DNA of 27,990 nt from an uncultured Coriobacteriaceae bacterium (GCA_902781245.1 CACZIP010000001.1:1-27990), one strand, 5' to 3'; counted from the first letter of the stretch, positions 86 to 27,988 are shown. Made by a program: numbers and translations. The notes: a model not told the origin generated them from the letters alone.

Positions 86-3000
86 CAACGATTCCAAGTA
101 CGACAGTGGCCCTTACGGTCACCGACGCTTTCCATCCCTCTGAAAGCGAACTCGACTTCGTCGTACGCACCTTCAACGTTCGATTCTCCGATTGGCGCGG
201 CAAACGAATCGTGCTCCATGGAACGAGGGAATATGCGCGCGCCATCGTAGAGTCTTTCGACGAAGCATATCGATTTGCCGCCGTAGTTGCCGATGGCTTT
301 GCGAATGCAACATTCGCGGGCAAGGATGTTTGGACCGACAGGCAGCTTGTCGAAGAAAAGCCTGATCTGGTAATTCTCACAGAACGAGTGCGTCACGCCG
401 AAGCCGTCTACCAGGAAATTGGCACGAAATGCCGAGAGGCAGGCATCGCACTCTTTGACATGTATGGACTGGATTGGCTGGCAATGCGCGACGAGATCGA
501 TGGGCAAGGTGCGCACACGTTGGAGGAATGGGTCGATATCGCCGCCCCTTATGACATCGTGAGTTTCGAAGTACCCGATTGCCTGATGATGCCGAACCCG
601 CAAGATGCGGACGTGCCGCTGATCTGCCAACCTTCGATGCGCAAACTCATCAAACGAATCGTGGCACAGGGCAAGCAGGCGCTATTTGTTGGACGCAAGC
701 CCTACACTGCCGAAGAGCAAATCGAGTCGCTCATAGCGTCAGGACTCATCTCCCGCAGAGAAGACGCCCAGGATCTCTTCTTTATGCGCGCGAACGAAGA
801 CGGTGCGTGGCGCACTATCCGTGCTGCTTATCCCGATGCGCGCATCTTACACGTGGGGTATGGCATCCCCAAGGAATGTGTGCTGCCTCGGTATTACGGC
901 GTCAACACGTATCGCATGGTGGGTGAGATAGCACCGGACAGCAAACAGCTCCAATACGGCAACCTTGCACGCGAGTCGCTCGACCCGGCGAAGCTGAAAG
1001 AACGCTTGGAAGCAGCCATCGAACAGGCAGAGGTCGTTTCGTTCGATATCTTCGATACATTGCTCGTACGCACGACGCTTGTGCCCTACGATGTGTTCGA
1101 GATCGTCGAACAACGCGCGGTGGAAATCGGGTTGCCAGCGCAGGGGTTCGCCGCAGCTCGCTTGGCAGCCCAACATAGCGCTGATGGCTATACAGCTGCG
1201 CGTATCTACCAAGCAGTGCAGCATGCCCTTGGCTGCAGCGATGCCGAATGTGAAGAGCTCTATCGTATAGAGCTTGAGGTAGAGCGCGAATCCATTTTTC
1301 CACGCGATTCAATGTGTTCATTGCTGCACAAGGCGCTCGCAAGGGGAAAGACAGTTGTCCTAATCTCTGACATGTACCATTCTGCTGAAACGATGGTCGA
1401 GCTCCTGCAAGCCAACGGCATCACAGGGTATCAGAAGCTCCTCGTTTCGAGCGAGCAGGGCATCCTCAAACGTCAGGGGCTGTTCGATTGCGTGATTTCG
1501 CCAGACACCCCCGCAAACCACATCGTTCATATCGGTGATAGCGTCAACAATGATATCGTTCCAGCCAAGGCAGCCGGCATGCAAGCCATCTTCGTCCCTT
1601 CCCCGCTCGATCTCGCGTTGACACATGGCATCAATCGAATGATGCGCAAGGATATGACCCTGGAGGAGCGCTGCGAGCTGCAAAGCATAATCGTCCGAGA
1701 ATATGCCGACCCTTTCGTTGAGCGAAACCTTGCCGTCGTCGAAGGCGCATGTGAGTCAATTCCCATCCCCTCCGTCGCCTCATTCTGTTCGTGGATGTCA
1801 AACACACCCTCTCTCGAAAAAGCCGTCGTCCATGTCGCACCCTACGAAAGCCGCATCCCTGTCGAGCTCCGTCGTGCGCTTCTCGCCTGGTACCCCTTCC
1901 ACACAGGATCACGTGCCCTGTTCTTGGGATCAGATCGGGAGGCATTCACATCACTGCTTGAAGCACATTACAGTATGCTCGATTTCGAGCTCGCACCCAA
2001 CGTGCAATACGACTTCATCGTCGCGCTCGACGTGCTCGATGGAAATCCTGAGCTGCAAGCGCTCGCCGAACGACTGTCACGCGCATTGGCGCCTGACGGC
2101 GTGCTGCTCTTGGGATTCAGGAACCGTTTCGGCGTGAAATATCTATGCGGCGCCATCGACGACGTTGTTGAAAACCCATTCGCCACGTTCGACTCAACCG
2201 GCTACCCAGGCACCCATGGACGACACGAAATGCAACACCTCGTCGAATGTGCCGAACTTTCGGCAGACCGCTTGTACTACATCATGCCTGATGCGGGTTT
2301 CGCTCAGGCAATCTATACCGACGATTACATTCCCAGTGCGGGAATCCACGACCGCGTGATGCCATTTGACAAGCACAAAAGCCCAATGGTCGCCGTCGAG
2401 CGCGATCTCTATCCCGCCATCGTAGAAGAAGGCATGCTTCCAGCTGTAGCCAACTACTACCTGATGGAATGCCGGAAGCCAGATGCTGCGCGTCCCGCCA
2501 GGCAGGTTGCCCATGTGGCGCTTTCGCTCGATCGCGGGTTGGCACACTCGTTCATCACCACACTGTTCACCGATGGAACCGCTCTCAAAGCCGCCGCACA
2601 TCCAGAAGGCCGTGCGGCGCTCGAAGCGCTTTACGCTAACAGCCAGGCATTGCATGCACGTGGCCTTGTGACTGTCGAAACGCAGCTCGAAGACGACGGT
2701 TTGCACATGCCCTTCATTAAGGAACAGCCGCTTCTCGCACATCTGGATGCGTTGCTGCCCATTGACCCTGATGCATTCATAGCTGTGTTCGACCAACTCT
2801 ACGAGGACGTTCTCGCATCGTCGGAACCCGGCACCATCTCGGATACCGACGCGTGGGGCACCTGGCACGCGAGCGCAACAGAACTCTCCCCCATCCTGCA
2901 AACAGCCTATATCGACATGGTCCCATACAACTCCTTCTGGTCAAACGGCATACTGCGCTTCTTCGACCAGGAATTCACCGTCGCAAATTGCCCAGCGAAA

Positions 3001-3702
3001 TACGTGCTGTTCCGCGCCCTGCGCTATACGTGGATCCATCTGCCGCATGCGGAACAATTGATTCCACTCGAGCGCATGAAGAAGCGCTTTGGCCTCGAAA
3101 AATTATGGGACGACTTCTTGAATTTAGAGGAAAGATTCGTCGAGGAGAACCGCAATCGTGCGCGCTACCGCGACATCTACGAATGGGCACGGTTCGATGC
3201 CCGCAGGATTGCAGAAAGCCGACATGCGTTGGCGCAATCCACGCAAGCCGCCGACGATAAGCCCTATCGCATTGGCCTGCTCATGGGTGTATTCGACCTG
3301 TTCCACGTGGGACATCTACGGCTCATCAAGCGCGCTAAAGCTCGCTGCCAGTTCTTGCGAGTTGCCGTACTCTCCGATGATCTCGTGCGCAAATTTAAAA
3401 ACATCACACCCACCATACCGCTTTCCCAGCGCATGGAAATCATCGCAGCCATAGACGGGGTCGATGAAGTTGTCGCCATCGAGGATGAGCCCTCACGTCT
3501 CGTGGAATGGCATCGCCGGCCCTTCGACTGCTTCTTCTCGGGCGACGATTACGCAGGAAATGAATACTGGGCACAAGAGCGTATCGAATTGGAAAAGCTT
3601 GGCGCAACCATCGAATTCTTCAGCTACACCGAAGAGCAAAGTTCTTCGAAGATTCGAGATGCACTCGAAGGACGCACCACAAACAAGAGGTTATCCGATT
3701 GA
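82..3702 (+). CDS. 1206-aa multidomain glycan biosynthesis protein: Rossmann-like module + degenerate HAD + intact HAD phosphatase + degenerate class I SAM methyltransferase-like + kinase-like + C-terminal HxGH (TagD-like) cytidylyltransferase
   Basis: RBS GGAGAAGG before ATG. Motifs: RIVLHGTREYA; degenerate HAD SFEVPDCL...HVGYGIPKE; intact HAD SFDIFDTLLVR (1039-1071), LISDMY, HIGDSVNND; MTase-like LLAWYPF...LAPDGVLLLGFRNRFGVKYLCG; kinase-like YIDMVPYN and FFDQEF; cytidylyltransferase GVFDLFHVGHL (HVGH at 3304-3315), QRMEIIAAIDGVDEVV, FSGDDY, SSSKIR. Confidence 0.85.
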   Translation: MTTIPSTTVALTVTDAFHPSESELDFVVRTFNVRFSDWRGKRIVLHGTREYARAIVESFDEAYRFAAVVADGFANATFAGKDVWTDRQLVEEKPDLVILTERVRHAEAVYQEIGTKCREAGIALFDMYGLDWLAMRDEIDGQGAHTLEEWVDIAAPYDIVSFEVPDCLMMPNPQDADVPLICQPSMRKLIKRIVAQGKQALFVGRKPYTAEEQIESLIASGLISRREDAQDLFFMRANEDGAWRTIRAAYPDARILHVGYGIPKECVLPRYYGVNTYRMVGEIAPDSKQLQYGNLARESLDPAKLKERLEAAIEQAEVVSFDIFDTLLVRTTLVPYDVFEIVEQRAVEIGLPAQGFAAARLAAQHSADGYTAARIYQAVQHALGCSDAECEELYRIELEVERESIFPRDSMCSLLHKALARGKTVVLISDMYHSAETMVELLQANGITGYQKLLVSSEQGILKRQGLFDCVISPDTPANHIVHIGDSVNNDIVPAKAAGMQAIFVPSPLDLALTHGINRMMRKDMTLEERCELQSIIVREYADPFVERNLAVVEGACESIPIPSVASFCSWMSNTPSLEKAVVHVAPYESRIPVELRRALLAWYPFHTGSRALFLGSDREAFTSLLEAHYSMLDFELAPNVQYDFIVALDVLDGNPELQALAERLSRALAPDGVLLLGFRNRFGVKYLCGAIDDVVENPFATFDSTGYPGTHGRHEMQHLVECAELSADRLYYIMPDAGFAQAIYTDDYIPSAGIHDRVMPFDKHKSPMVAVERDLYPAIVEEGMLPAVANYYLMECRKPDAARPARQVAHVALSLDRGLAHSFITTLFTDGTALKAAAHPEGRAALEALYANSQALHARGLVTVETQLEDDGLHMPFIKEQPLLAHLDALLPIDPDAFIAVFDQLYEDVLASSEPGTISDTDAWGTWHASATELSPILQTAYIDMVPYNSFWSNGILRFFDQEFTVANCPAKYVLFRALRYTWIHLPHAEQLIPLERMKKRFGLEKLWDDFLNLEERFVEENRNRARYRDIYEWARFDARRIAESRHALAQSTQAADDKPYRIGLLMGVFDLFHVGHLRLIKRAKARCQFLRVAVLSDDLVRKFKNITPTIPLSQRMEIIAAIDGVDEVVAIEDEPSRLVEWHRRPFDCFFSGDDYAGNEYWAQERIELEKLGATIEFFSYTEEQSSSKIRDALEGRTTNKRLSD

Positions 3703-3727
3703 AAGTACAAGACGGAAAGCGGAGCTC

Positions 3728-4687
3728 ATGACACGTGGATTCGTAACAATTGCAACTGGCAGGAAGCGTTACTACATCATCGCTGCTAACTTGCTTGCGT
3801 CGTATCGACATTTCTCTGCCAGCCCTCTGCCTTTCGCAATCATCTGCGACGCTGAGAATGACTACACCAAGCTTTTCGACGATATAGTACTACTCGACAA
3901 CCCTCACCGTTCTTATTTGGATAAGCTCGTCCTGCCGCGCCTCGCACCATACGATGAAACCATTTTCATTGATGCAGATTGCCTCGCTTATCGCGACCTA
4001 AACGATTACTGGAACTACTTCGAACAGGCGGCGGATTTTACCGCATTCGGCACAACCCATCCCGCCGATTTCCCCTATGCGTGGTTCAAAAAGAATGACG
4101 TGGACGAATATGCCGACCGCATCGAGTTCGTGCCAGACTTTATTGGGGGCGTCTACTTCATCAGAAAAGATGCGACACTTAATGCATTCTCCGATACGTG
4201 TACCCACATCCTCGAAAACTACCATCGCTATACGTTCCGTCAGTTCTCACAACCAGCTGACGAACCTATCTTCGCCCTCGCCATGGCAGTTCATGGTTTT
4301 AAGCCGGTCGATAAAGCACAAGCTCCTATCTGCTTCTTCCCACACGAAACGAGCTTTACATCCGATATCACGACGGGTCAAGTACGTTATACAAGCAAGT
4401 ACGAAAGTGACTGCGGTGAACGCCGATGGGCCTATATGGTCCATTGGGGCAGCGGCAACACGTCGAAACCGCCTTACATCACCGAAGCAGCCCGCTTGAA
4501 ATCTGCTATTCGCGAGCGCGGGAAACTCGCAACAACATGCGGAGCCATGTGTGCATGCGCGCCTTATTATGCAAAAACAGGTATGAAGTGGGTTTTGTCG
4601 AAGCTCCATTTGCTCGATGTCGCACGTAGGGTGAAAAGCTCGCTTGCATCACCCCATCGCGACAACTCATCATCAGTTTCTCGATAG
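3728..4687 (+). CDS. GT-A fold glycosyltransferase (GT8-like nucleotide-diphospho-sugar transferase), 319 aa
   Basis: ATG 3728 preceded by GGAAAGCGGAG, preferred to the track's 3464 start that overlaps the upstream gene. DxD motif in PYDETIFIDADCLAYRDL; GGVYFI and DEPIFALAM motifs; basic amphipathic C-terminus. Exact family assignment is inference. Confidence 0.65.
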   Translation: MTRGFVTIATGRKRYYIIAANLLASYRHFSASPLPFAIICDAENDYTKLFDDIVLLDNPHRSYLDKLVLPRLAPYDETIFIDADCLAYRDLNDYWNYFEQAADFTAFGTTHPADFPYAWFKKNDVDEYADRIEFVPDFIGGVYFIRKDATLNAFSDTCTHILENYHRYTFRQFSQPADEPIFALAMAVHGFKPVDKAQAPICFFPHETSFTSDITTGQVRYTSKYESDCGERRWAYMVHWGSGNTSKPPYITEAARLKSAIRERGKLATTCGAMCACAPYYAKTGMKWVLSKLHLLDVARRVKSSLASPHRDNSSSVSR

Positions 4688-4778: not shown

Positions 4779-4910
4779 AAGATGAAAATGCGGAAAAGAA
4801 ACGCCAGGAAATCCTCGATTATCTTATGCGCTCTGAGCCCCCGCTCGCATTGAATGCCATCGCAGCGGTGATCCTGGCACGAATATCGCTTATGCCGTCA
4901 TTTTATGAAT

Positions 4911-4988: not shown

Positions 4989-6740
4989 ATGAAATCGATT
5001 TCGCTGAGCAGGTGGATATGCATCGGCTTTTCCGCATTGCTGATAGCCATCAGCTTTCTTGTCGGATGCCAATCATCCACTGCATCCTCCGCCACTTCGG
5101 CATCAGCCGCCAGCTCGGCATCGTCCGCCGATGTGGAAACCGCAGTTACCTTCAGCGTGGAGTCCGGCGCATACCAAGCACAGTCCATCGATCTCACGCT
5201 TAGCAGCTCCTCGGGCTTGCCTATCGTCTACACGACGGACGGGTCATTGCCTACCGCTTCTTCCGTGCGCTTTGATGGCGCAATTTCGATCGATTCGAGC
5301 GATACCAACAGGGCCCTCATAACCCGGCTCAACAACGAGATACCCGATTTCAGAGCGATTGTCGTGGACGATTCGCTTCCAACAGCAACTGTAATCAGGG
5401 CAGCCGTCTTGCGTCCTGACGGAACAGTTGGCCCAACTTTCACGAACACATATTTCGTAGACGAGGACCTCGTGCAGATGTTTGACAGCATCATGGTCGT
5501 TTCACTTGTAGTCGACCCAGCCAATCTTCTCGATTACGAGAGTGGCATCATGGCGAAAGGAGCCATCTACGACGAGCATCGCGCAGAAAACGAGCTCCTG
5601 AGCAACGGAAACCAACATGATGTTCAGGCAAACTACACTCAAAAAGGCCGCGATTGGGAGCGAGAAGCCACCATCGAACTCTTCGACGGTTCCAACACGC
5701 TTTCGTACGAAGCGCCTTGCGGAATACGCTTGCGCGGACGTGTGTCGCGCATATATGCGCAGAAGAGCTTCAACGTGTATTTCAAGGATTCGTATGGGAC
5801 CAAAAAGATGGAATACCCGCTGTTCGGCGATATCGCAACGTCATCAAACGGGGATCCAGTAACCACTTACAAGAGCTTCTGCTTGCGATCGGGCGGCAAC
5901 GACACGGAACTGTTGCGCTACCGAGATAGCCTTCTGCAGGAAACGCTCGGTGGCTACGATTACGCCACGCAAGCCTCGCGTCCAGCAATCGTCTTCTTGA
6001 ACGGGGAGTTCTATGGCGTCTACAGCCTTGCAGAGAAATATTCAGATTCCTACATCGAAAGCCATTATGGAGTCGATTCTAAAAATGTGGTCATGTTCGA
6101 AGACGGGGAACTCGACGAGGGCGTCGACGAAGACCAAGCTCTCTACAACGAACTCATAGAATTTGCAGAGCGCGACCTGGCAGACGAAACCACATGGAAT
6201 GAATTCAACAATGTGGTCGACGTTCAATCTATGGCCGACTATTATGCAACTCAATTATTCATCGGCAATTACGATTTCGATGAAACGCAGAACTGCCGCA
6301 TATGGAGGGCACGCGATCCTGAAGAGGATAGCGCGTATGCCGACGGGCGATGGCGCTGGATGCTATACGACACCGAGTTTTCCACTGGGCTGTACGGCCT
6401 CCAGGTAACACAAGCCGACTACGACACAATGAAACAATATCTGGAGATATGCCCGCTCTTTGCCGCAGCGATGCGCAACCCAACCTTCCGCGAGCTTGTC
6501 CGCAGCCGCATCATCGATCTTTCGCAAAACGCATTCGAACCTACCCGAATTACCACCTTGTTCGACGAGTGGTGGGTGGTTTGGAAGCCGTGGATTAACT
6601 TGAGCTGCAAGCGATTCGCGACAAAAATCGACAGTGCTGAGCAGAGCTTGACCTTTGCGAAAGACTTCTTCGCCCGACGCGCGGATTGCATCATCGATTT
6701 CTTTGACCTGCATGTGGCGGAGATAGCTGCACAAAGTTAA
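4989..6740 (+). CDS. CotH kinase family lipoprotein with Fn3-associated/CHB_HEX_C-like domain, 583 aa
   Basis: Signal peptide with lipobox LVGC (Cys27). Ser/Thr/Ala-only linker at aa 29-47. FSVESGAY...IVYTTDGSLPT (Fn3-associated). CotH motifs GIRLRGRVSR, KSFNVYF, LRSGGND, LNGEFYGVYSLAEK, YYATQLFIGNYD, WRWMLYDTEFS. RBS GAGGGGA. Confidence 0.85.
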   Translation: MKSISLSRWICIGFSALLIAISFLVGCQSSTASSATSASAASSASSADVETAVTFSVESGAYQAQSIDLTLSSSSGLPIVYTTDGSLPTASSVRFDGAISIDSSDTNRALITRLNNEIPDFRAIVVDDSLPTATVIRAAVLRPDGTVGPTFTNTYFVDEDLVQMFDSIMVVSLVVDPANLLDYESGIMAKGAIYDEHRAENELLSNGNQHDVQANYTQKGRDWEREATIELFDGSNTLSYEAPCGIRLRGRVSRIYAQKSFNVYFKDSYGTKKMEYPLFGDIATSSNGDPVTTYKSFCLRSGGNDTELLRYRDSLLQETLGGYDYATQASRPAIVFLNGEFYGVYSLAEKYSDSYIESHYGVDSKNVVMFEDGELDEGVDEDQALYNELIEFAERDLADETTWNEFNNVVDVQSMADYYATQLFIGNYDFDETQNCRIWRARDPEEDSAYADGRWRWMLYDTEFSTGLYGLQVTQADYDTMKQYLEICPLFAAAMRNPTFRELVRSRIIDLSQNAFEPTRITTLFDEWWVVWKPWINLSCKRFATKIDSAEQSLTFAKDFFARRADCIIDFFDLHVAEIAAQS

Positions 6741-6890: not shown

Positions 6891-7979
6891 TTGGCGCTCG
6901 ACGACGTGAGCCTTTCAGTCTACGAAGGAGAAGCGCTGGGAATCATCGGCCGCAACGGCGCAGGCAAGAGCACACTGCTCAAACTACTGTCGCGCGTGAC
7001 GGTGCCAACGACGGGCCAGATTCTCGTCAGGGGCATGATTTCTTCCATGCTCGAAGTGGGCACCGGCTTTCATCGGGAAATGACCGGTCGCGAGAACGTG
7101 TATCTCAACGGCGCGATACTGGGGATGTCCAAGCGAGAAATCGACGAGAAGATGGAAGACATCATCGAATTCGAGGAAATGAGCCGTTTCATCGACACGC
7201 CCGTGAAGCGATACTCGAGCGGCATGTATGTCAAGCTCGCCTTCTCTGTTGCCGCCCACTTGGACAATGACATCATGGTCATGGACGAAGTGCTTTCGGT
7301 GGGAGATGTCATGTTCCGCGCAAAGAGTCTCGCCAAGATGCAGCAGGAAGCGAGCGGCGGCAAGACCATCCTCTACGTGAGCCACAACATGTCCACCATC
7401 AGAAAGCTTTGCGACAGATGCGCGGTGCTCCGGGAAGGCAAGCTCGTGTACTTGGGCGCTACCGAAAAGGCGATCGAAAAGTACCTGGACACGATCCTGG
7501 ACAATCGAACGTCGAGGGACCTATCCCAAATGCCGAGGAGCGCGCGTCTAACATCGCGCAAGATGATCCTCACGCATGCTGAATATCCTGGGAAGGACTG
7601 CATCCAATTCGAAGATGGAGAAAAGCTGACGATGCGCCTTCACTGGGAGGACCTGGACGATTACGAAGACCTTTGCTTACGCGCAGAAGTCTGGACCATC
7701 GAGGATGTCCTGCAAGCGAGCGGCGTAATCCACAACGTGTGCTCGGGCAAGCGCGGTGATTCACACGACGTGACGATAGAGTTGGACATCTCGCGGTTCG
7801 CGAGTGCTACCTACAAAACGAAGTTCACGTTCTTCTTCCGCGATAGGTTCGGGGGCATTCACGATACGGACAGAGTAATCGGATTGTTCTTCGAGAGGGT
7901 TTCGCAAGACGAAGCCCTCTGGGATGTCTCGAATTGGGGTTATATCCATCTCGATGATCTACGAGTGCTGCAATCCTAA
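6891..7979 (+). CDS. wzt: Polysaccharide ABC transporter ATP-binding protein (Wzt) with C-terminal carbohydrate-binding-like domain; probably 5'-truncated
   Basis: Walker A GRNGAGKST, signature YSSGM, Walker B IMVMDE, VSHNM. Wzt homology extends 44 codons upstream to 6759 (RHRLGQIGGGTLQHDIQSWW) with no ATG/GTG/TTG between the CotH stop (6740) and TTG 6891, so it may be a silent or pseudo copy. Confidence 0.7.
   Translation: MALDDVSLSVYEGEALGIIGRNGAGKSTLLKLLSRVTVPTTGQILVRGMISSMLEVGTGFHREMTGRENVYLNGAILGMSKREIDEKMEDIIEFEEMSRFIDTPVKRYSSGMYVKLAFSVAAHLDNDIMVMDEVLSVGDVMFRAKSLAKMQQEASGGKTILYVSHNMSTIRKLCDRCAVLREGKLVYLGATEKAIEKYLDTILDNRTSRDLSQMPRSARLTSRKMILTHAEYPGKDCIQFEDGEKLTMRLHWEDLDDYEDLCLRAEVWTIEDVLQASGVIHNVCSGKRGDSHDVTIELDISRFASATYKTKFTFFFRDRFGGIHDTDRVIGLFFERVSQDEALWDVSNWGYIHLDDLRVLQS
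7137..7168 (+). repeat. 32-bp perfect inverted repeat, arm 1 (inside + wzt)
   Basis: GAAATCGACGAGAAGATGGAAGACATCATCGA; exact reverse complement at 8859-8890. It arises from paralogy of the two wzt genes. Confidence 0.85.
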
Positions 7980-9331: not shown

Positions 9332-9333
9332 AT

Positions 9334-10173
9334 CTACACCGTATCCACGAACGTTCGCTCCACGCGATTGAACATAAGGATGCCGCATACCGCACACACC
9401 AGCGCAACCACGATGCTAATTCCCGTTGTAATGGGATCGATGGTCCCCGAGCCCAGCAGGGCGAATCGAAGCCATTCTACTGGCGCCGTTACCGGATTCA
9501 GCATCACGACGGTTCGCAGTATCCCTTCGGGAATCTGCGAAAGCGGGTACACGATGGGAGTGCCGAACATCCAAAGCTGCATTCCGAACGACACGAGAAT
9601 TTGCAGGTCGCGATATTTTGTCGTCAAGCTGGACAAGATGATGCCCACACCCATACCTAGAACACAAAGATGCACAAGAGCGAGTGGAATGATCAGCCAC
9701 ATCAACCAGTTCGGGCTTACCGTGCCTTGCACGACGAAGAACGCCACCAATGCAAGCACGAGAATCATCTGTATGCCGAACCGGATGAGCCCTACGAGTA
9801 GATTTGAAACAGGTACAGTGAGCCGCGGGAAATATACCTTGCCGAACACGTTTGCATTCGCAATGAACGTTGCCGCATTGTCGGTGACCGCTGATGCAAA
9901 CAAGCCCCATATAGCCGTGCTCGCTAGATAGAACAGGATTTGGGGTACTCCATTGGTACTGATGCCGGCTATGACGCCAAACACAAGCATATAGGCGATG
10001 CTCGACAGAAGCGGACTGATGATTATCCACGCAGGCCCCAGCACCGTCTGCTTGTACGTGAGCGTGAACGTCTTTTTCGTGAGCAGCACGATGAGGTCGC
10101 GATATTGCCAAACTTCACCAAGGTTGAGCCCTACGCACTCCGTTTCGGAAGATATGTGGACATGATAGGTCAT
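9334..10173 (-). CDS. wzm: Polysaccharide ABC transporter permease Wzm, 279 aa
   Basis: WQYRDLIVLL...TYKQTVLGPAWIIISPL, ANVFGKVYFPRLTVP, LTTKYRDL, WMFGTPIVYP, LNPVTAPVE; about six hydrophobic segments. ATG 10173 overlaps the upstream TGA (ATGA). Confidence 0.93.
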   Translation of the reverse strand: MTYHVHISSETECVGLNLGEVWQYRDLIVLLTKKTFTLTYKQTVLGPAWIIISPLLSSIAYMLVFGVIAGISTNGVPQILFYLASTAIWGLFASAVTDNAATFIANANVFGKVYFPRLTVPVSNLLVGLIRFGIQMILVLALVAFFVVQGTVSPNWLMWLIIPLALVHLCVLGMGVGIILSSLTTKYRDLQILVSFGMQLWMFGTPIVYPLSQIPEGILRTVVMLNPVTAPVEWLRFALLGSGTIDPITTGISIVVALVCAVCGILMFNRVERTFVDTV

Positions 10174-12848: not shown

Positions 12849-12852
12849 CGCA

Positions 12853-13797: not shown

Positions 13798-13849
13798 GAT
13801 TACTTTCCTCCTGTTTTTAAGCCAAGCCCAACGGCGCATGCCCAGACCA

Positions 13850-19807: not shown

Positions 19808-19808
19808 G

Positions 19809-21470
19809 CTACAGCCGCTCCTTCAATAGCTGGTATACATGCTCGGCGATGATGCGATTTGCAGCATCGGAATAGTGACATCGATCGATGTATGCGCCAT
19901 CTTGATGATGGAACATGTCAAGAAAATTGAAATAGAAATCATCGTCGCGAGCACCGAAAAGAAAAGCTCTGCCCCATTTATGGTTCTCTGACGTGAAATA
20001 CATGTTTTCGAATAACGAGTTTATCCGCATGCATGCATTCATGGGCTGCAATATCGCTATAAACTCTGCTCCTTCTTCTTCGACAACAAGCTTCATGTAC
20101 TTTTCCACGCGACGCCAGAATTCGAAGGGGTTATCACCGTGAACCTGTTCGAATTTGTTCTCCTGTGCACGCTGATCGTTTACACCACTCAAACTTATAA
20201 CGAAATCGGGCTTGAGCGCATGGATATCGCGCAGCAGACGGGACATTTCCTGTGTCACGCCATTGCCCTCGTTTGCGCCGTTGAAAACAACAGCTTTGAC
20301 CCCATCTGCCTCGAACATTTTGTACAGTTTTTCGACCCAGCTTTCCGGATAGTACAATTCGGTTGATGTGCTGCCACCAACAACAACAATGCGCACAGTC
20401 GCTTCGGCCTCATCTCCATGCACCATCCATCCCGGCTTACCGCCGAGGCACGAATAATCGATGCTAGCTAACATCCGAACGTCATACTCATAATCCACAA
20501 CGTGATTCAGCAAATACTCATTGTTTACAGACAGCTGTAAAGAGCCACAATCGGCTTTCTCCATTGAATAACCGAGGTCGTATGCGGCTCCGAGCATTTC
20601 GAGTCGCTGACGGTTTGAGAAAGACCCGATGATCACTGCGCTTCGATCGGAATCTTCGTCAGCCAAATCCCAAATATCCCCCGCGCTTTCGCCTTTGCGG
20701 GTCATGAAAACCTCGCGATCCACGTTTATCCCATAGGCCGACAACAAGCGGCTTAAAAGTGCTCGTGAAGCATCATCCCCACAACAGAGCAAGAGACGAC
20801 GGTGTTCTTTTGCAGACTTGTCTAAAACATATACAAGATTATCTCCCCAGAGTGAAAAGTGCGGCACAACCTCCCGAATGTATATCGTCCCGCGAAATCC
20901 GATTGCGAGCAAAACTGCTACTTCATCCCCTATCTGGCAATGGGAATCCGCAGCCACGATCACGGCATCGTCCGCATTCAGAGGAGCCTCCTTTATCGTA
21001 TACACAGGAACCCCGAGGATAGATACGGTTTTCGTCACTGTTTTTTCCGTAATGAACCCGCTCACAGCACCCACGCCTACCTTGGAAACCTTCTTTGCAA
21101 TATCCCATGTCAATTCCCCGGTTCCATAAAGATACGGTGATTTGCACTCGAGGTTCGGATTGAGTTCTAAGGCTTCGGAATAGTACAGAGCGTATCCGCG
21201 AGAGGCCACAACGTTGAAAGCACCTTCCCGGACATCGTCATCCACGATTGCAATAGCGTCCTCCAATTCCGAAAACTCATCGACGGACACGATAGGCAAT
21301 CCCATTATGGTATCGCCAACAAACTCACTGAAATTGGTGACAAACCCCTCGACCCTGACACCGCGAAGCGCAAGCGCCGAGAACACCCATATAGCTTTTC
21401 TCCCCATGTCCCATACGTATATTGACTTGTCCTTCAAATCGCGCCGAAGCGTATACAGGTGTTCTACCAT
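19809..21470 (-). CDS. Protein with tandem N-terminal Rossmann-like modules and C-terminal SGNH/GDSL hydrolase-fold domain, 553 aa
   Basis: ATG 21470 with GGAG 8 nt upstream. SIYVWDMGRKA and YLYGTGELT modules. SGNH blocks VVGGSTS, FNGANEG, SLSGVND, IDRCHY. No signal peptide. Confidence 0.7.
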   Translation of the reverse strand: MVEHLYTLRRDLKDKSIYVWDMGRKAIWVFSALALRGVRVEGFVTNFSEFVGDTIMGLPIVSVDEFSELEDAIAIVDDDVREGAFNVVASRGYALYYSEALELNPNLECKSPYLYGTGELTWDIAKKVSKVGVGAVSGFITEKTVTKTVSILGVPVYTIKEAPLNADDAVIVAADSHCQIGDEVAVLLAIGFRGTIYIREVVPHFSLWGDNLVYVLDKSAKEHRRLLLCCGDDASRALLSRLLSAYGINVDREVFMTRKGESAGDIWDLADEDSDRSAVIIGSFSNRQRLEMLGAAYDLGYSMEKADCGSLQLSVNNEYLLNHVVDYEYDVRMLASIDYSCLGGKPGWMVHGDEAEATVRIVVVGGSTSTELYYPESWVEKLYKMFEADGVKAVVFNGANEGNGVTQEMSRLLRDIHALKPDFVISLSGVNDQRAQENKFEQVHGDNPFEFWRRVEKYMKLVVEEEGAEFIAILQPMNACMRINSLFENMYFTSENHKWGRAFLFGARDDDFYFNFLDMFHHQDGAYIDRCHYSDAANRIIAEHVYQLLKERL

Positions 21471-21587
21471 TAGCGCCACTCCTGTTAAACAGCTCCTGTG
21501 AAGAGCAACTCCAAGAATCGATTGGGCTGATCTGCGTTAGTTCGCATTTCGCTCATTTCGCCACATCAATCATCATAGCATCGCCTT

Positions 21588-22943
21588 TTATAGAGCGTTC
21601 ACAGCGTCAACGATGATCTGGAGACGTCCGCGGTCAACCCGCCCATTTGCAATGCTGTCGAAGAGAAGCTGAATGAGCTCGAGGCTCAACATGACAAGAA
21701 CAGCTTTCGCGTATTGCCGTTCCGCGAATTCATGCCCCCTATATTGAACAAGATGTGAGTACAGGTTGTCATAAAGGCTGTTCCTCGCTTTTCGATAGGA
21801 AACCCGACCAACCCTAACGTTTCTTACCTGCAAGCTGAATAGGAAATAGCACACGTCGCACAATGGATCGCCCATCGCAACAGTATCCAAGTCTACAAGG
21901 TAATACGTCCCTTGGTAATACACGAAATTCGTATACGAGCAGTCTCCATGGCATGGCCTGAGCGTGGTTGACAATAAGGCGAGCCTCGACGCCACTCTCT
22001 CTTCGCATGCATCGATTGCCAGCTTTGCCTCATATTCAAACTTCAAGCAGCGCTCAAAAACCTGCGAGAAATAGCGGTATCGCTCCTCCAAGTAATCAAA
22101 GACGACGGGTGCAACGAGGCTCATTTCGTGAAAACGCCGAATACAATTCAGTGCGTTTGCTACCACTTCCCGGTCATTGAAGCGAATGTTGAAAAATGGT
22201 GTTGCATAGCGGTCAATTCGGGCTCCATCATCACGCGCGCAAACGAGAAGCTCCGTCCCAACGCGATGCTGTATTAACCAGGCTGTACGATTTGCTGTAT
22301 TCCACTGCTCCGGTGCGGCAAAGACACGAGTAGCGTGCTCCTTGTCATACGGCATGCGAAACATATACTTTATCGTGTCGACAACATAGCCGAAAGAAAC
22401 GCTGTTTTCCCCGCCCCTCATCGTAAAGAAGCTGTCCGCAGCCTTTTCGCCATGCGCCTCTTTGTACAAAGCACGAAACGATTCGTATACCATCGTAGAA
22501 TCGCAGGCCCAGCCACCGAGCCTTAGAGATCGTTTAATTAGGGGATCATGCGTGACCATTTCCTCCCAATTGTTGTAGTAATACGTTATGTGTCTACGAT
22601 TTACGCAAACTGGAAGATTGGATATATCGAAGAGCAATCGAAGCTCAGCAAGGATTTCCTCTGAAAAACGCTGACTCGAAACGACAAGATAGTACTCGTT
22701 GAAATCAAGGGAAGCCAAATAATCGAAAGGTTGAATACGATAGCTGCGTCCGCAAAGCTCAATGATTTTACCCACTTTATTCGGACTGTTGTCAATAACA
22801 TGGGCGACATTGGGCAATTCCATCTCATTCATGAGATTGAGACAGCCTCTACCAGCGCCACATATGATGGCATGTCGCTGGGTAACGTCTTGCTCGTCGT
22901 CTTCGCACGAAATGCAAATCTGCATACATGGCTCCAGAATCAT
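21588..22943 (-). CDS. Choline/ethanolamine kinase-like (APH superfamily) phosphotransferase with N-terminal Rossmann-like module, 451 aa
   Basis: AIICGAGRGC...IDNSPNKVG; kinase features MRGGENS, KYMFRMP, IRRFH, PCHGDCSYTN, LVDLD, MGDPLCDV. ATGA coupling to the upstream gene. Confidence 0.75.
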   Translation of the reverse strand: MILEPCMQICISCEDDEQDVTQRHAIICGAGRGCLNLMNEMELPNVAHVIDNSPNKVGKIIELCGRSYRIQPFDYLASLDFNEYYLVVSSQRFSEEILAELRLLFDISNLPVCVNRRHITYYYNNWEEMVTHDPLIKRSLRLGGWACDSTMVYESFRALYKEAHGEKAADSFFTMRGGENSVSFGYVVDTIKYMFRMPYDKEHATRVFAAPEQWNTANRTAWLIQHRVGTELLVCARDDGARIDRYATPFFNIRFNDREVVANALNCIRRFHEMSLVAPVVFDYLEERYRYFSQVFERCLKFEYEAKLAIDACEERVASRLALLSTTLRPCHGDCSYTNFVYYQGTYYLVDLDTVAMGDPLCDVCYFLFSLQVRNVRVGRVSYRKARNSLYDNLYSHLVQYRGHEFAERQYAKAVLVMLSLELIQLLFDSIANGRVDRGRLQIIVDAVNAL

Positions 22944-24793
22944 TCACCATTATCGAGAGGAGAAAACTGTTCGAGAACTTCGCACAACAACTCTTCGACA
23001 TTTCCAGTGTAAACAAGGTCAGTCGCATGCGGATGAACGCCCATCCGTTTTAGGCTAAACGTATCGGGAATAATCCCCGTGCCCTGCTCGTATAAAAGCA
23101 CCATCGTGCAATCCGAAGCAATGCTCGCAATATCGCACAGACCGCTCCGGATGGAGACGAACCCACCCGCACGGTTGAGGAAATCAGCTATTTCGTCGAA
23201 TGGCACGCAGATTCCCAAAGTGCCCTCGATGGCCCCCTCATCCGTGCTGCAATTCGTGCAAACGCCATATCCGCGACCAATCAACGCACGGGCAAGCCGG
23301 TCCCAAAAGTCTGTATGCTCAAGCAATACTGAACTATAAGCATTGGCGTAGGGCGCAAGAACCACCGTCATGCCAGGTCGAAATCCAACACGTGAAAACA
23401 TATCCTCGGGAACAGGATGCTGCACGGGGGCGGCGAGATCGAGGGGCCCCTCGTAAAAGAAGTATTGGAACCTCATGCTGTTGAGGTGATGACGCCAAGG
23501 CGGGAAGTGCCCGTTCTCCTTTTTGGGCAGTATGTTTCTCACGAGTCGGCTTCCTAAATGCAAATCTGGCTTCATGTTCATGCGGCATCCACCGAAGAAG
23601 TCCCACGCCTTGTATAGAGCCAAGAGATCGTCGATTGGGCATGTCCGGATTCCATCAATTCCGAACAAAGCAGCGACATGGGCATCGGCTTTGCTTGATT
23701 TGCGCTTTTCTAGAAGCAAGGTGTAGTTCTCGATTGAGGAACACTTCAAGTACTCAGGCAACAAGGTGCAGAGCCAGAAGACATCGCCCGTGCCGCCGAT
23801 GCTTGTAATGAGCAAACCATCCCCGAGTTGTTGGCGAAGCTCGTAGCCAGCACACGCTTTCGAAAACTCTTCCTTCAACGTCGCTTCGTCATCGCCAAGC
23901 GACCGCGCAATACCCCAATCGAGAGGGATTTCATATATTTGGTCATCTCGGTAGCCCAGTTTTGCAAGACACCCGCGCATTGCGCGCGCATGCTTCTCGA
24001 CGACGATGATGATTGCATTTTCGTCATAAGGACAAAGAGCATGTTCCGGCAACTGACAGCGTAGCGACATCTCTACATTAAAGCCATCTTTTTCCGGATT
24101 GCTATCCAAGAGCCCCGCTACTTCGAAACCGCAATCTCTCAACGAACGGCAGATATCGCCTGCAAAGTGAGTCAACCCGAAAATGTATACGTTTTTGTCC
24201 GCGAATTGAGATGCGTTTTCCCTGATTGCTTGCACGATAGTACGCGAGCTTGCGTTCCACCATCCCCAGTTCACTGGTTTGGCGCAATAGATTCCATCCC
24301 GAACGAATTGCTCAAGCGTAATACCGCAGTTTCCAATCCATGCAGAACATGAATAGGGCTCTTCCAGAGAAACGACGATTACATCATCTGCAAACTGGAC
24401 TAAACGATAATACGCCAACAAATCGGCAAGATCATTTGCCTCGATATGCCTGAAGGTGATCTCGCAATCGCCAAACATTCGATGGCCGTTAATATCGATG
24501 CCAGCATCATCAGATATGAGAACGATGGCACGCCGATAGTATTGTTCGTTTACATATGTTCTCAGAGCATCGCCGAGCGCGATCCGATTCAACTGGTCGT
24601 TATCGGATGGCACGATAATCCAGCAATCATGCTCGGTAAGATCAAGCCTCTGTTTGAGCGCGCGCACAATCACGCGACCTCTATCAGCGCGACCATAATC
24701 GCCAGTAAGCTCATCTGGCGCTAAAAGTCTAACAGCGCCCCCCGAAGCTAGGTCAGCCGATTCCTCTGCTTCTTTTGCTTCATATTGCCTCAT
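22940..24793 (-). CDS. Multidomain putative GT-B glycosyltransferase (GT9/heptosyltransferase-like C-terminus) with central Rossmann-like module
   Basis: C-terminal ITSIGGTGDVFWL, VVLAPYA, FWDRLARALIGRGY, FVSIRSGLCDIA (GT9-like GxGD and xSGxxH/D patterns); central NVYIFGLTHFA...LDSNPEKDG. Start is uncertain (ATG 24793 or GTG 24826). Confidence 0.55.
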   Translation of the reverse strand: MRQYEAKEAEESADLASGGAVRLLAPDELTGDYGRADRGRVIVRALKQRLDLTEHDCWIIVPSDNDQLNRIALGDALRTYVNEQYYRRAIVLISDDAGIDINGHRMFGDCEITFRHIEANDLADLLAYYRLVQFADDVIVVSLEEPYSCSAWIGNCGITLEQFVRDGIYCAKPVNWGWWNASSRTIVQAIRENASQFADKNVYIFGLTHFAGDICRSLRDCGFEVAGLLDSNPEKDGFNVEMSLRCQLPEHALCPYDENAIIIVVEKHARAMRGCLAKLGYRDDQIYEIPLDWGIARSLGDDEATLKEEFSKACAGYELRQQLGDGLLITSIGGTGDVFWLCTLLPEYLKCSSIENYTLLLEKRKSSKADAHVAALFGIDGIRTCPIDDLLALYKAWDFFGGCRMNMKPDLHLGSRLVRNILPKKENGHFPPWRHHLNSMRFQYFFYEGPLDLAAPVQHPVPEDMFSRVGFRPGMTVVLAPYANAYSSVLLEHTDFWDRLARALIGRGYGVCTNCSTDEGAIEGTLGICVPFDEIADFLNRAGGFVSIRSGLCDIASIASDCTMVLLYEQGTGIIPDTFSLKRMGVHPHATDLVYTGNVEELLCEVLEQFSPLDNGE

Positions 24794-25163
24794 CGATATA
24801 ATATTCAATCCCTTCAAAGCGATCACGAATGCAGTTCACCGCATATGCAGTGGCTAACCCGGAAGGCTTTCTGTCGTTGATCAGAATTCGCTCCCCGCAA
24901 GGCGCATTCCAGATGATGCAATCGAAGCGCATCCCCTGATCCAAAAGGAACGACTCCGTTTGCTTGCGGTATTCTTCTGATCGAGCTGTAATGAGAACGA
25001 CCATGTCATCCTCACCGAGTTGGTTCAAAAACTCTCTCGCGCCCGGAAGCACCATATCCCCTTGCTCGGTTTTGTAACCGTTGTGTTTGACAAGCAACCC
25101 GTCGATATCGATAATCCACGTCTTCGGCAGGGCTGATAGCCTGAGAGCGTCATTTGAGCCCAT
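24780..25163 (-). CDS. Small capless HAD-superfamily phosphatase, 127 aa
   Basis: Motif I IIDIDGLLV, motif II ITAR, motif IV LINDRK; overlaps both neighbours. Confidence 0.8.
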   Translation of the reverse strand: MGSNDALRLSALPKTWIIDIDGLLVKHNGYKTEQGDMVLPGAREFLNQLGEDDMVVLITARSEEYRKQTESFLLDQGMRFDCIIWNAPCGERILINDRKPSGLATAYAVNCIRDRFEGIEYYIDEAI

Positions 25164-25761
25164 ATAGCCCCTTCTTCTCGCTTAAAAGAGCACCAATTGC
25201 ACCTCCGGGATGATTGCGGGCAAACTGCCCAAGCTCAACCCCCATCCTCTGCGCCACGAGAATCGCTATGCCCTGTAACACGAAAAGATTGACTATCGTG
25301 GAATTGTTGGGCATCACGTTCCACAAATCGCCCTCGTGCTCTAAATCCATCACAAGACGCTGGGGAACTAGGTCTCTCAATGTGCTCTCATGAGAATATG
25401 TGATGAGCCACTGGTCGACATGCCTTCCTTGGTCGTTCAGCTCTCGAACAAGCTCAATTGCCTCGAGTGTTTCTCCGCTCTTCGAGAGCACAATCAGAAC
25501 ATCCCCGTCCCTTATGCATCCCATGTCCCCATGAAATGCGCTGTTGGTATTCATGAACAAGGCATCCAAGCCCATCGAAATCATTGTTCCTGCAAACATT
25601 TCGCAGATGGGCACGTTCTTTCCCAACCCTGTGACAATAACTCGATGTCCATTATTAAGTGCGCAGGTCGCGTGATCGACGAGCTGTTCGAACAACTCGC
25701 TATCAATAGAGCTGATCGCATGGCGAATCATGTCAAGCTGCTCTTCGAAATAATCAATCAC
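25150..25761 (-). CDS. SIS-domain sugar-phosphate isomerase, KdsD/KpsF/GutQ (arabinose-5-phosphate isomerase)-like, no CBS pair, 203 aa
   Basis: VIVTGLGK, FHGDMG, VLSKSGETLE, PNNST, FARNHPGGAIG; ATGA coupling at 25758-25761. Confidence 0.85.
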   Translation of the reverse strand: MIDYFEEQLDMIRHAISSIDSELFEQLVDHATCALNNGHRVIVTGLGKNVPICEMFAGTMISMGLDALFMNTNSAFHGDMGCIRDGDVLIVLSKSGETLEAIELVRELNDQGRHVDQWLITYSHESTLRDLVPQRLVMDLEHEGDLWNVMPNNSTIVNLFVLQGIAILVAQRMGVELGQFARNHPGGAIGALLSEKKGLYGLK

Positions 25762-27296
25762 AAAACATCCTCCAAGTAGAACAAACCATTATAAAATGCC
25801 GCACAGATCGAGTCATAATCTGGCCATGCGTACGTTGTGAGAGAAAGCCAGATTATCGCATGAATCAGACGTATTTCCCTCGTATCCGATTCTGTAAGCT
25901 CAAAGAACTCGTCCTCGAGCTCCTCCCAGCCATTGGAAACGATGCTGACACACACCTCGCCCTCCGGCAGTCTTGTCTCTCTCGATCCATTCTTCCCACC
26001 TATATCCAAATTGAATCGCTTAAGGTTGAACTGATCGTAATTACCCACTATCGAATAGTACAGTTTTGCCCAATCGTAGCGTTCGTCGCCGTAAAGCTCC
26101 GTATGGCCGAAATAACCACGTGGATCAAGCATCACCGGAGTCCCATCAGCCCTGCGCATGATATTGGAGAACGTGCAGTCTCCATGAATCAACGCAAACC
26201 TTTCGCAGCAAATCGTCGAAATGAGTTGCTCGAATTCCCGCTCATGGAAGAAGATGTTTCTGCAAAGCTTTCCGTTGACGGTTATGACCTCGTCTTCTGA
26301 GTAGGGAATGAGCCTTCTCACCTTCGATAACCTGTCCATGGTTTTGATATAGTACGCTTCAATCACGCTCGATCGATCGGCTGGAACGGAATCGAGCGCG
26401 TGAAGATCACCCAAATCGCCAACGATCGCCTTAAGCAGCTGGCTCTTCTCCTCCCTACCGAGCTCAATCTCATGAACGCACCCTCCGATCAAACGCTCCA
26501 TACGCAATGGATCGAGCGAGCAGATTCTCGGAATAAAGCGAACTCCGTGAGACAAGACCTTTTCGTACCAGGCCCTTTCGCGCTTTGACAAGCGTCTTCC
26601 CTGCTCGTCAATTGGTTCTTTGATGACTACTTCTTCTTCGAAGGTCAGACGATTGAAGGGCCTCCATCTCGATGCGCATCTTTTCTCTGCATTTTCGAGT
26701 AACCCGTATTCAGCGATCCCAGCCACATCGAAGGGCGTCATGTCCATGCCACTATCTTTGAGCCAACGGACAAACTCCCCCGATGACGGAACATGAGAAA
26801 GTCTAAATTTTTCAGCGAACAGAAAAACCCCCGCAACACCGTGTTCGTCCGACCGTTCTTCAAAGAGCTCTCCATTTATAAACGACCATCTGCACGAAAA
26901 CGCTGACGTAACCCCAACGTAATCACGCTTTGCCGAGGAGCCTTCGCGATAATCTCTCGGCAAGCAGAACGCTTTTGACAAAAGCAAATCACTCCAGATG
27001 AGCAAGAACGGCTCTTTATCGGGAATAAGCTTCACGGCATCTCTAATACCTGCGCAAGTGCCCGCGCCCTTCGCATCAACAACCTGATAACTGACCTCGG
27101 CGAAGCAGGATAAGTATTCTCGCAACACATCCTTCTTGTAATCCGCGATAATAATGAATTGTTTGTCTGGATACTTCTTAAATAGATGAAACAGCAGCGG
27201 GAGATTATCGATGGGCACGAGAGCTTTTGGCTTGTTCCTTGTCAAATGACCCAATCGCGTACCCTTTCCTCCTGCCTGAACGATAATGTACTTCAC
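25758..27296 (-). CDS. Fusion of N-terminal sugar-phosphate nucleotidyltransferase (NTP_transferase) and C-terminal APH-like kinase, 512 aa
   Basis: VQAGGKGTRLGHLTRNKPKAL, LIWSDL; kinase motifs VVIKEP, IHGDCTFSN, MLDPRG, YDWAKL. GTG 27296 follows AAGGAGG. Confidence 0.85.
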   Translation of the reverse strand: MKYIIVQAGGKGTRLGHLTRNKPKALVPIDNLPLLFHLFKKYPDKQFIIIADYKKDVLREYLSCFAEVSYQVVDAKGAGTCAGIRDAVKLIPDKEPFLLIWSDLLLSKAFCLPRDYREGSSAKRDYVGVTSAFSCRWSFINGELFEERSDEHGVAGVFLFAEKFRLSHVPSSGEFVRWLKDSGMDMTPFDVAGIAEYGLLENAEKRCASRWRPFNRLTFEEEVVIKEPIDEQGRRLSKRERAWYEKVLSHGVRFIPRICSLDPLRMERLIGGCVHEIELGREEKSQLLKAIVGDLGDLHALDSVPADRSSVIEAYYIKTMDRLSKVRRLIPYSEDEVITVNGKLCRNIFFHEREFEQLISTICCERFALIHGDCTFSNIMRRADGTPVMLDPRGYFGHTELYGDERYDWAKLYYSIVGNYDQFNLKRFNLDIGGKNGSRETRLPEGEVCVSIVSNGWEELEDEFFELTESDTREIRLIHAIIWLSLTTYAWPDYDSICAAFYNGLFYLEDVL

Positions 27297-27403
27297 AAAC
27301 CTATACCTCCTTACCGGCATGCAATATGGCGCCCTGCTGCATTTCAGTCATGTAGCATCACCCCTCGCGCAATCAGGCTTCGCTTGGATTCGTTTGACGT
27401 CTT

Positions 27404-27988
27404 TTATTCCTTGCTGTATACATGTTTCCAGCCAGCCGCATCGAGCATCTGCTCGACGTCGGCGCGATATCCATCAGTTACCGACACCACCACAAGCGCA
27501 TCGCGCCTACATGGCACATCGGCGAGCGCCTGCACCCGATGCCCCTTGAACGCATTGGGATTGCCCTCCACGCTGCTCACGAGGAACCCTTCGATGGCGC
27601 GACCCTGATTCACCAGCGATTCAAACACATTGCCCGCGATGACGCCCGCTCCATAGACGTAAATCGCATTCGCCGTCTCAATCGCCGCTTGGGCCAGCGG
27701 TCCAAGCATCCCATGATGCAGATGCGCCTTCTGAGACTTGGCGAATACAATGTAAGCATCCAAAAGCTCGGTTCCTGCAAACCAAGCAGCAATGTCCACG
27801 TCGTCGGCAAGAAGCTGCGCGTGCTGGCGCACAAGAGCGTCGTAGATGCGCGCGAGGTTGCGATCCGCCGCCTCGCTCTCGAATCCCCGCTCCTGCATAA
27901 AGCGCCCCATATGGCAGAACCCCTGGAAATACGACGCAAAGTTTTTCAACGTGGGTTTAGTGGTCATAACTGAACCCTCACGATAACG
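27404..27988 (-). CDS. C-terminal part of a probable GT2 glycosyltransferase with C-terminal Rossmann-like module (partial, runs off right edge)
   Basis: The frame stays open to the window edge and reads RYREGSVMTTKP, the typical GT2 YRxRxGSxM motif, so ATG 27967 is probably internal. C-terminal AIYVYGAGVIA...FKGHRVQAL...DALVVVSV. Confidence 0.65.
   Translation of the reverse strand, partial: RYREGSVMTTKPTLKNFASYFQGFCHMGRFMQERGFESEAADRNLARIYDALVRQHAQLLADDVDIAAWFAGTELLDAYIVFAKSQKAHLHHGMLGPLAQAAIETANAIYVYGAGVIAGNVFESLVNQGRAIEGFLVSSVEGNPNAFKGHRVQALADVPCRRDALVVVSVTDGYRADVEQMLDAAGWKHVYSKE

Follow-up and report, generated by a model that had tools for sequence, protein, structure and literature searches.

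In the window analysed here, a stretch of 27,990 nucleotides from an uncultured Coriobacteriaceae bacterium (GCA_902781245.1, CACZIP010000001.1), a Rossmann-like module of about 95 residues recurs eight times on seven proteins of an ABC-transporter-type glycan locus. The module is one more example, invisible to Pfam, of an accessory domain already known and widespread yet unstudied in function, and it belongs to the superfamily that comprises PglD_N, CoA_binding_3 (the 'DUF', or domain of unknown function, of WbaP and WbpM), Methyltransf_14 and C2185-like_N. The reading that we favour, with a probability of roughly 0.6, is that of an old mobile accessory domain, inherited separately with each enzyme family, which would serve within its own enzyme as a nucleotide handle or sensor.

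Eight homologous copies in one locus

The copies, named m1 to m7 (m4a and m4b forming a tandem), occupy the following sites of the window, their host open reading frames (ORFs) being named by number from o01 to o18.

m1: 187–501, plus strand; N terminus of o01, residues 36–140 (envelope of the hidden Markov model, HMM); glycine turn degenerate (H-G-T-R)
m2: 12429–12746, minus strand; N terminus of o07, residues 35–140; G-S-G and A-D-D kept
m3: 13925–14251, minus strand; C terminus of o09, residues 362–470; G-T-G kept
m4a: 21144–21446, minus strand; first module of the o12 tandem, residues 12–112; turn lost (W-D-M-G)
m4b: 20850–21158, minus strand; second module of the o12 tandem, residues 108–210; G-T-G kept
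m5: 22569–22892, minus strand; N terminus of o13, residues 18–125; G-A-G and I-D-N kept; the most divergent copy
m6: 23897–24214, minus strand; middle of o14, residues 205–310; second glycine lost (G-L-T)
m7: 27407–27691, minus strand; C terminus of o18, residues 100–194 of the fragment; G-A-G kept

The initial annotation, made from the sequence alone, had described this recurrence, and its description is accurate. Every motif string that it listed lies in a long ORF, offset by about 15 nucleotides at most, with starts at nucleotides 205 (o01, plus strand), 12728 (o07), 14230 (o09), 21425 and 21134 (o12), 22871 (o13), 24193 (o14) and 27667 (o18). The variable position of the module that it reported is also borne out (N-terminal in o01, o07, o12 and o13, central in o14, C-terminal in o09 and o18), as is the lack of recognizable similarity at the DNA level, none being found when the copies are compared with one another. 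The glycine motif, said to be broken in three copies, is so in exactly m1 (G-T-R), m4a (D-M-G) and m6 (G-L-T). Profile searches match no further ORF of the window, in agreement with the stated absence of the module from Wzm/Wzt, the UXS-type enzyme, the carbamoyltransferase and the sugar-activation trio.

The eight segments, each of about 100 residues, are collinear over the pattern I-Y-G-x-G ... F-x-D ... G-x-x-x-x-G-x-P-V ... D-x-V-I-I ... E-I ... L ... G, with pairwise identities of 13–27%. Because identity is this low and BLASTP does not reach significance for several pairs (m2 against m1 reaches an E value of 2e-9), each copy was tested against the whole genome, represented by 23,255 six-frame ORFs. 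Leave-one-out HMMs built from window copies only rank m7 (E = 3e-8), m3 (5.5e-6) and the o12 tandem m4a/m4b (3.5e-11) first and m1 and m2 second (E = 0.03–0.06), and miss m5 and m6. A profile to which foreign copies were added, and from which the tested copies and their near relatives were removed, retrieves m6 at 2.9e-7, m2 at 1.6e-5, m1 at 1e-4 and m5 at 1.7e-3; with only m5 left out, m5 is found at 1.1e-5. In addition, hhalign aligns the m5 family with a family alignment lacking m5 at 97.5% probability (E = 5.6e-12), and m6 has direct BLASTP matches to foreign copies. On these comparisons of sequence, all eight copies are homologous. A chance resemblance, in which unrelated β–α–β segments or generic Rossmann folds would look alike only by eye, could appeal to the non-significant BLASTP comparisons, to the blindness of Pfam to the copies and to the scores of about 1e-3 that a 2-hydroxyacid dehydrogenase and a ThiF-type protein of the genome obtain against the profile, but it is already contradicted by the leave-one-out and enriched-profile results (3e-8 to 1e-4 genome-wide), by the hhalign probability of the weakest copy, by the collinearity of the eight alignments and by the G-x-x-x-x-G-x-P-V motif common to the copies, PglD_N and CoA_binding_3, and can be dismissed as extremely improbable.

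Superfamily and fold

The module had been likened to PglD_N, CoA_binding_3 and the C-terminal domains of C-methyltransferases. This likeness holds at the level of the superfamily and by indirect routes, but not as a direct Pfam match. Searched against 1.84 billion proteins, the eight-copy profile finds 3855 representatives of 50%-identity clusters (E ≤ 1e-3), of which the top 150 are 114 to 2300 residues long and carry one to four copies each, whether at the N terminus, internally or at the C terminus. The partner domains seen in 60 of the top representatives include glycosyltransferases of families GT2 (18) and GT1/GT4 (9), methyltransferases (7) and GDSL hydrolases (4), and Pfam recognizes PglD_N in 16 of the same 60 host proteins, Methyltransf_14 in 16 and CoA_binding in 11. 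Isolated homologous segments, 111 in number, match PglD_N (23), Methyltransf_14 (14), CoA_binding (14) and C2185-like_N (4) at E ≤ 0.01; the CoA_binding_3 model itself, PF13727, is not among the Pfam matches of the window copies or of these segments. Against PDB sequences the family profile matches 3nkl, the N-domain of a WbpM-type dehydratase (2.8e-9), Rex (2.7e-8), VioB (4.6e-7), WbaP residues 144–228 (4e-6) and 2g6t (3e-4). Neighbours in the ESM Atlas are clusters of the same architecture (GDSL, GT1 and GT2 fusions), in which 47–95% of members are labelled C2185-like_N; a literature search found no publication under the name 'C2185-like'.

The fold points in the same direction. An AlphaFold2 model of o12 residues 1–215, computed from 40 homologues, has a pLDDT score (predicted local distance difference test) of 94.6 and a predicted template modelling (pTM) score of 0.89; each module comprises three helices and five strands, and the arrangement of one module against the other is confidently predicted. 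Results of a VIA-align search of 48,161 chains with this model show the strongest similarity with 2g6t (Z 10.0), 3nkl (9.8), WbaP (9.2) and Pcryo_0637 (8.7), followed by Rex (8.3), VioB (8.1) and PglD (7.0), the top values standing only modestly (2–3 units) above those of generic Rossmann domains (Z about 7). The top match superposes model residues 112–207 on residues 1–97 of 2g6t_B (root mean square deviation, r.m.s.d., of 3.2 Å over 91 residues), and VioB aligns on the degenerate m4a (residues 17–103). Foldseek comparisons of the two-domain model with the PDB and Swiss-Prot give low global template modelling (TM) scores of 0.2–0.33, because the alignments straddle both domains, and the top Swiss-Prot matches are Rex; VIA-align and a single-domain model of m5 were used in their place. 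Since the N-terminal domain of o13 has only two relatives in a set of 5.8 billion proteins, there was no independent alignment for folding m5, and its AlphaFold2 model (pLDDT 84.4) rests on the family alignment. Foldseek matches of this model are 3nkl, Rex, PglB-ATD, VioB, KijD1 and TcaB9, with TM scores of 0.56–0.58 and r.m.s.d. values of 2.7–3.1 Å for KijD1 and TcaB9.

Inheritance of the copies with their enzymes

The initial annotation had the module grafted onto at least seven unrelated enzymes. Seven enzymes do carry copies, but the hosts are partly related and the fusions are not local. Residues 21–273 of o01 and 20–277 of o07 are collinear over about 255 N-terminal residues that comprise the module and the region following it (E = 2e-11), and the GT2 enzyme o09 is a paralogue, with the same architecture, of the full-length orthologue of o18 (37% identity, E = 3e-39). 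The nearest relatives of each copy are 40–70% identical copies borne by proteins of the same architecture in other organisms, and the best-scoring neighbour of each within the window is surpassed by 12 to 101 foreign copies, which argues that the fusions are old and that each enzyme family brought its own copy. Judged from these scores, the copies have not been shuffled within the locus, and 'grafted' is misleading for what took place there.

In two of the enzyme families a degenerate glycine turn is conserved. Full-length homologues of o12 make up 57 of the 150 top representatives, and in the 40 homologues of the o12 family the turn of the first module is degenerate family-wide (I-Y-I-W-D) and that of the second intact (I-Y-G-T-G); the degenerate 'LHGxR' loop of m1 is likewise conserved across the o01-like family. 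Among 118 two-copy proteins, a sample dominated by the o12 family, a broken copy precedes an intact one in 61, both are intact in 46 and both broken in 11, and the order intact then broken does not occur; the first copy is thus broken in 61% and the second in 9%.

A putative nucleotide handle or sensor

By analogy with the solved relatives, the most likely mechanism is that of a handle or sensor. Placed beside the catalytic domain of its own protein, the domain would hold or sense the nucleotide part of substrates activated by nucleoside diphosphate (NDP) or cytidine diphosphate (CDP), or of their by-products. The copies would have been inherited with the N-terminal unit shared by o01 and o07, with the GT2 enzymes (C-terminal copy), with the SGNH protein (N-terminal tandem), with the APH-like kinase and with the GT9-like protein. 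The candidate nucleotide holders are the intact copies, namely m2, m3 and m5, the only ones to combine G-x-G with an acid at the end of strand 2, and m4b and m7, which have G-x-G only. The degenerate-turn copies m1, m4a and m6 are more likely to be structural partners; in the o12 model the degenerate m4a packs rigidly against the intact m4b.

The Methyltransf_14 domain anchors the deoxythymidine diphosphate (dTDP) of the sugar substrate, and the PDB entries of KijD1 and TcaB9 are, by their titles, dTDP-sugar complexes. The N-domain of Pcryo_0637/PglD is a platform for uridine diphosphate (UDP), which it contacts through a loop serine and an Asp-Asp pair at the end of strand 2 (PMC8040287). The isolated DUF of WbaP is stabilised by uridine mono-, di- and triphosphate (UMP, UDP and UTP), and has been proposed to give product feedback (PMC10942596), a role in ligand sensing and dimerisation being published for this cousin domain only.

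Several observations weigh against a nucleotide handle or sensor. On the four glycosyltransferases a substrate handle would be superfluous, since GT-A and GT-B domains need no help in binding their NDP-sugar donor. From the classical dinucleotide Rossmann signature (G-x-G-x-x-G/A plus acid), window copies keep the G-x-G in five of eight cases (m2, m3, m4b, m5 and m7) and the acid at the end of strand 2 in four of eight (Asp in m2, m5 and m6, Glu in m3). Across 382 family copies G-x-G is intact in 256 and broken in 126, about a third, and at the Asp position Val ranks second in frequency; the PglD type of nucleotide site can therefore not be shared by the whole family. Finally, no Pfam model matches any of the eight copies, whether in searches with whole host proteins (E ≤ 0.1) or with isolated segments (E ≤ 10), and the m5 model, given its source, does not count as independent evidence.

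Such departures would suit a purely structural or homodimerising domain, in which ligand binding has been lost in this lineage and the host enzyme is only stabilised or dimerised. Besides the third of family copies without G-x-G, many are without the strand-2 acid; the degenerate loops conserved in the o12-like and o01-like families suggest selection for something other than the binding of nucleotides; and the relatives Rex and WbaP dimerise. However, in the family alignment 95% of copies keep the first glycine and 89% the second, which is unexpected for a pure scaffold, and every solved relative binds a nucleotide, so that we regard a solely structural role as rather unlikely.

A smaller probability still attaches to a pathway-wide control handle, by which the polymer-acting enzymes of the island (the four glycosyltransferases, the LicD protein, the SGNH protein, the kinase and the CDP-forming protein) would sense one nucleotide by-product, or would pair a degenerate with an intact copy. 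This would extend to soluble enzymes the feedback idea advanced for the WbaP DUF and, if true, one signal would throttle or assemble the whole assembly line.

The initial annotation had also proposed, besides a shared ligand sensor coordinating the pathway, a non-catalytic address tag that gathers the glycan enzymes into a complex. In this view the modules would bind one another or a common scaffold, and the cytoplasmic glycan enzymes would be assembled at the Wzm/Wzt transporter. The rigid packing of the two o12 modules (pTM 0.89 in the model), the frequency of tandem copies and the related WbaP DUF, which forms most of the dimer interface (PMC10942596), are all compatible with such a tag, and the two-copy proteins, with 61 cases of a broken copy before an intact one and never the reverse, hint at an obligate pairing that single-copy proteins could satisfy with the copy of another protein. 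Yet nothing positive speaks for pairing between proteins, identities of 13–27% and separate origins with each enzyme family fit poorly with one shared surface for recognition, genomes with only one or two copies carry the module on isolated proteins, and WbaP dimerises by a β-hairpin swap specific to the WbaP family (PMC12802240). A complex prediction for the o01 module (residues 30–145) with the o07 module (residues 28–145), run without controls, has a score of 0.00 and counts neither way. The address tag is unsupported, and we consider it very unlikely.

Whichever of nucleotide binding, as in the handle or sensor that we prefer, or enzyme pairing were true, the domain would act in the synthesis of surface glycans as a general element of regulation or organisation. 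Among the parts of bacterial glycan enzymes that carry no annotation it is one of the most frequent, with dozens of copies in some gut Lachnospiraceae genomes. The window reveals no new kind of system; what it adds is a clean case whose copies all escape standard Pfam annotation, together with a conserved degenerate-plus-intact tandem (o12) that would make a good first experimental target.

Gene content of the window

The ORFs of the window are as follows.

o01: 82–3702, plus strand; 1206 residues: module, HAD-like region, HAD domain, methyltransferase-like region and cytidylyltransferase
o02: about 3728–4687, plus strand; 319 residues, no Pfam or NCBIfam match
o03: 4989–6740, plus strand; CotH family
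o04: 6891–7979, plus strand; Wzt-type ABC ATPase
o05: 8018–9397, minus strand; Wzt-type ABC ATPase
o06: 9334–10224, minus strand; Wzm
o07: 10170–12848, minus strand; LicD-family phosphotransferase, 892 residues (Pfam LicD, 1.9e-30)
o08: 12853–13839, minus strand; UXS-type short-chain dehydrogenase/reductase (SDR)
o09: 13850–15334, minus strand; GT2 glycosyltransferase with C-terminal module (Pfam Glycos_transf_2, 2.4e-37)
o10: 15544–17622, plus strand; CBS domain plus CitC-like ligase
o11: 17981–19807, minus strand; carbamoyltransferase
o12: 19809–21479, minus strand; tandem module followed by an SGNH/GDSL hydrolase-type domain (Pfam Lipase_GDSL, 4.5e-5)
o13: 21588–22943, minus strand; APH-type kinase-like protein with N-terminal module (Pfam APH, 2e-7)
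o14: 22940–24826, minus strand; 628 residues, no Pfam or NCBIfam match
o15: 24780–25163, minus strand; small HAD protein
o16: 25150–25761, minus strand; KpsF/GutQ-type SIS protein
o17: 25758–27320, minus strand; nucleotidyltransferase plus kinase
o18: 27404–27988, minus strand; C-terminal half of a GT2 (about 410 residues when whole), cut by the contig end

Pfam matches CTP_transf_like (2.7e-14) and HAD models to o01, and NCBIfam matches cytidylyl/adenylyltransferase models. The longest ORF at o02, from 3464, overlaps the end of o01, so that the true start is probably a later ATG; the protein contains an F-I-D-A-D-C-L stretch reminiscent of the GT-A DxD motif. A lipoprotein-like N-terminal signal (…L-V-G-C) and chitobiase/Fn3-associated domains mark o03 as a likely extracytoplasmic CotH kinase. 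The two Wzt-type genes o04 and o05 lie tail to tail with one wzm nearby, and a weak Wzt_C match is present in the minus-strand o05 only.

Residues 305–628 of o14 resemble ESM Atlas clusters of GT9 (heptosyltransferase-type, GT-B fold) with feature scores of 0.95–0.96 and TM scores of 0.63–0.80, and the GT9-like nature of this C-terminal half is a lead only; many of the clusters concerned come from phages. The SIS protein o16 belongs to the KpsF/GutQ/KdsD type rather than to GmhA, with a match to the arabinose-5-phosphate isomerase family at E = 4e-25, and for this reason NDP-heptose synthesis by o17–o15 was dropped as a candidate pathway. The fragment o18 is homologous to 417-residue proteins made of a GT2 domain and a module, and is matched in synteny and sequence by a locus of a metagenomic relative, L008. 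The cassette formed by the nucleotidyltransferase-kinase, SIS protein, small HAD protein, o14 and o13 is found in L008 and missing from a related locus in sample ERZ1029115.

The locus in its genome and in other organisms

The genome (2.18 Mb in 335 contigs, 71% complete) holds nine copies in total, the ninth at the N terminus of an 810-residue GT2-DUF6270 protein on contig C144. This contig (L007, 1–5784) continues the right end of the window, its truncated GT2 (4875 onward) being the N-terminal half of o18. Upstream of the truncated GT2 it encodes the GT2-DUF6270 protein, a 287-residue LicD protein and a metallophosphoesterase. The joined order of C144 and window matches that of L008, which runs LicD, GT2-DUF6270, GT2 (410 residues), nucleotidyltransferase-kinase, SIS, a 127-residue protein, a 614-residue protein, APH (445 residues), a 553-residue protein and carbamoyltransferase. 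As C144 supplies the half missing from o18, all nine copies belong to one locus.

Only three of 40 related genomes contain any copy (E ≤ 1e-5), the other 37 having none. The GC content of the window is 51.8%, against 57.1% for the genome, which places it in the lowest 2.3% of contigs of at least 5 kb, and by tetranucleotide distance it ranks 4th of 84 contigs. The low GC content and the rarity of copies in related genomes argue for an acquired island, probably from Bacillota-type donors, with its closest relatives in metagenome-assembled genomes (MAGs) of Bacillota.

Related loci were sought with the full-length o12 family alignment. The homologues come from Solobacterium, Oscillospiraceae, many Lachnospiraceae and one Bacteroides MAG, and their neighbourhoods contain up to 10 copies in 9 ORFs (L022) and 11 in 9 ORFs (L030) within 16–22 kb; for loci of Lachnospiraceae the number over such a span is 8–11. 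Whole genomes of such organisms hold 7, 24, 36, 6 and 16 tightly clustered copies. Islands with 8–14 copies are routine in Lachnospiraceae genomes, and these copy-rich loci and genomes make the pattern of the window a routine one for islands of this kind. On the chromosome of Syntrophus buswellii (873929–894642) five consecutive proteins of about 400 residues carry one N-terminal module each, so that the pattern also exists outside Bacillota, in a cultured deltaproteobacterium-type organism.

Comparison with known systems

CoA_binding_3 (PF13727; 3nkl, 8t53) is the cytoplasmic 'DUF' of large phosphoglycosyl transferases (PGTs) such as WbaP and CpsE and the N-domain of WbpM/PglF-type dehydratases. 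Like the window copies it is a non-catalytic domain on glycan-pathway enzymes, and the two share the motif I-Y-G-x-G ... F-x-D ... G-x-x-x-x-G-x-P-V ... D-x-V-I-I, their relation being at the superfamily level. In WbaP the domain binds uridine nucleotides and dimerises through a β-hairpin swap (PMC10942596). The window hosts, in contrast, have no transmembrane bundle, PGT or SDR partner and do not reproduce the WbaP/PglF context, in which the domain lies between a four-transmembrane bundle and a PGT domain or precedes a PglF-type SDR; the copies are instead found on soluble proteins (GT2, LicD, SGNH, kinase-like and GT9-like), anywhere along the chain and in some cases as a tandem.

PglD_N (PF17836; 7txp, 7l7y, 2npo) is the N-domain of NDP-sugar N-acyltransferases of the PglD/PerB/VioB/NeuD type, where it forms a platform for UDP or thymidine diphosphate (TDP) (PMC8040287). 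Its kinship with the module is apparent from the 23 of 111 segments that match its model, from the profile match to VioB (4.6e-7) and from structural Z values of 8.7 (7l7y), 8.1 (VioB) and 7.0 (PglD). The difference lies in the partner, Pfam detecting no hexapeptide or left-handed β-helix acyltransferase domain in any window host protein, and in the nucleotide-contacting Asp-Asp, which is kept in only some of the window copies.

Methyltransf_14 (PF08484), the C-terminal domain of the sugar C-methyltransferases TcaB9 and KijD1, has matches in 14 of the 111 segments and in 16 of the 60 host proteins, and the m5 model aligns to both enzymes. The window modules differ in having no preceding zinc-binding and S-adenosylmethionine (SAM)-binding domains and no match to the HMM; the methyltransferase-like region of o01, the only one in the window, lies far downstream of m1.

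The C-terminal NADH-binding domain of Rex (CoA_binding, PF02629) is close by profile (2.7e-8), by structure (Z 8.3) and as the top structural match in Swiss-Prot, and it too is a small Rossmann domain of the sensor type, joined to a domain of another function. Rex, however, senses NAD(H), carries a DNA-binding domain of the winged-helix type and forms its dimer through a helix swap, and the window holds no regulator.

C2185-like_N (PF22674) is matched by 4 of 111 segments, and none of the eight window copies reaches its model even at E ≤ 10, but the ESM Atlas clusters of GDSL, GT1 and GT2 fusions carry its label. The closest solved structure is 2g6t, which is the best structural match of the o12 module and whose sequence matches the family profile at 3e-4.

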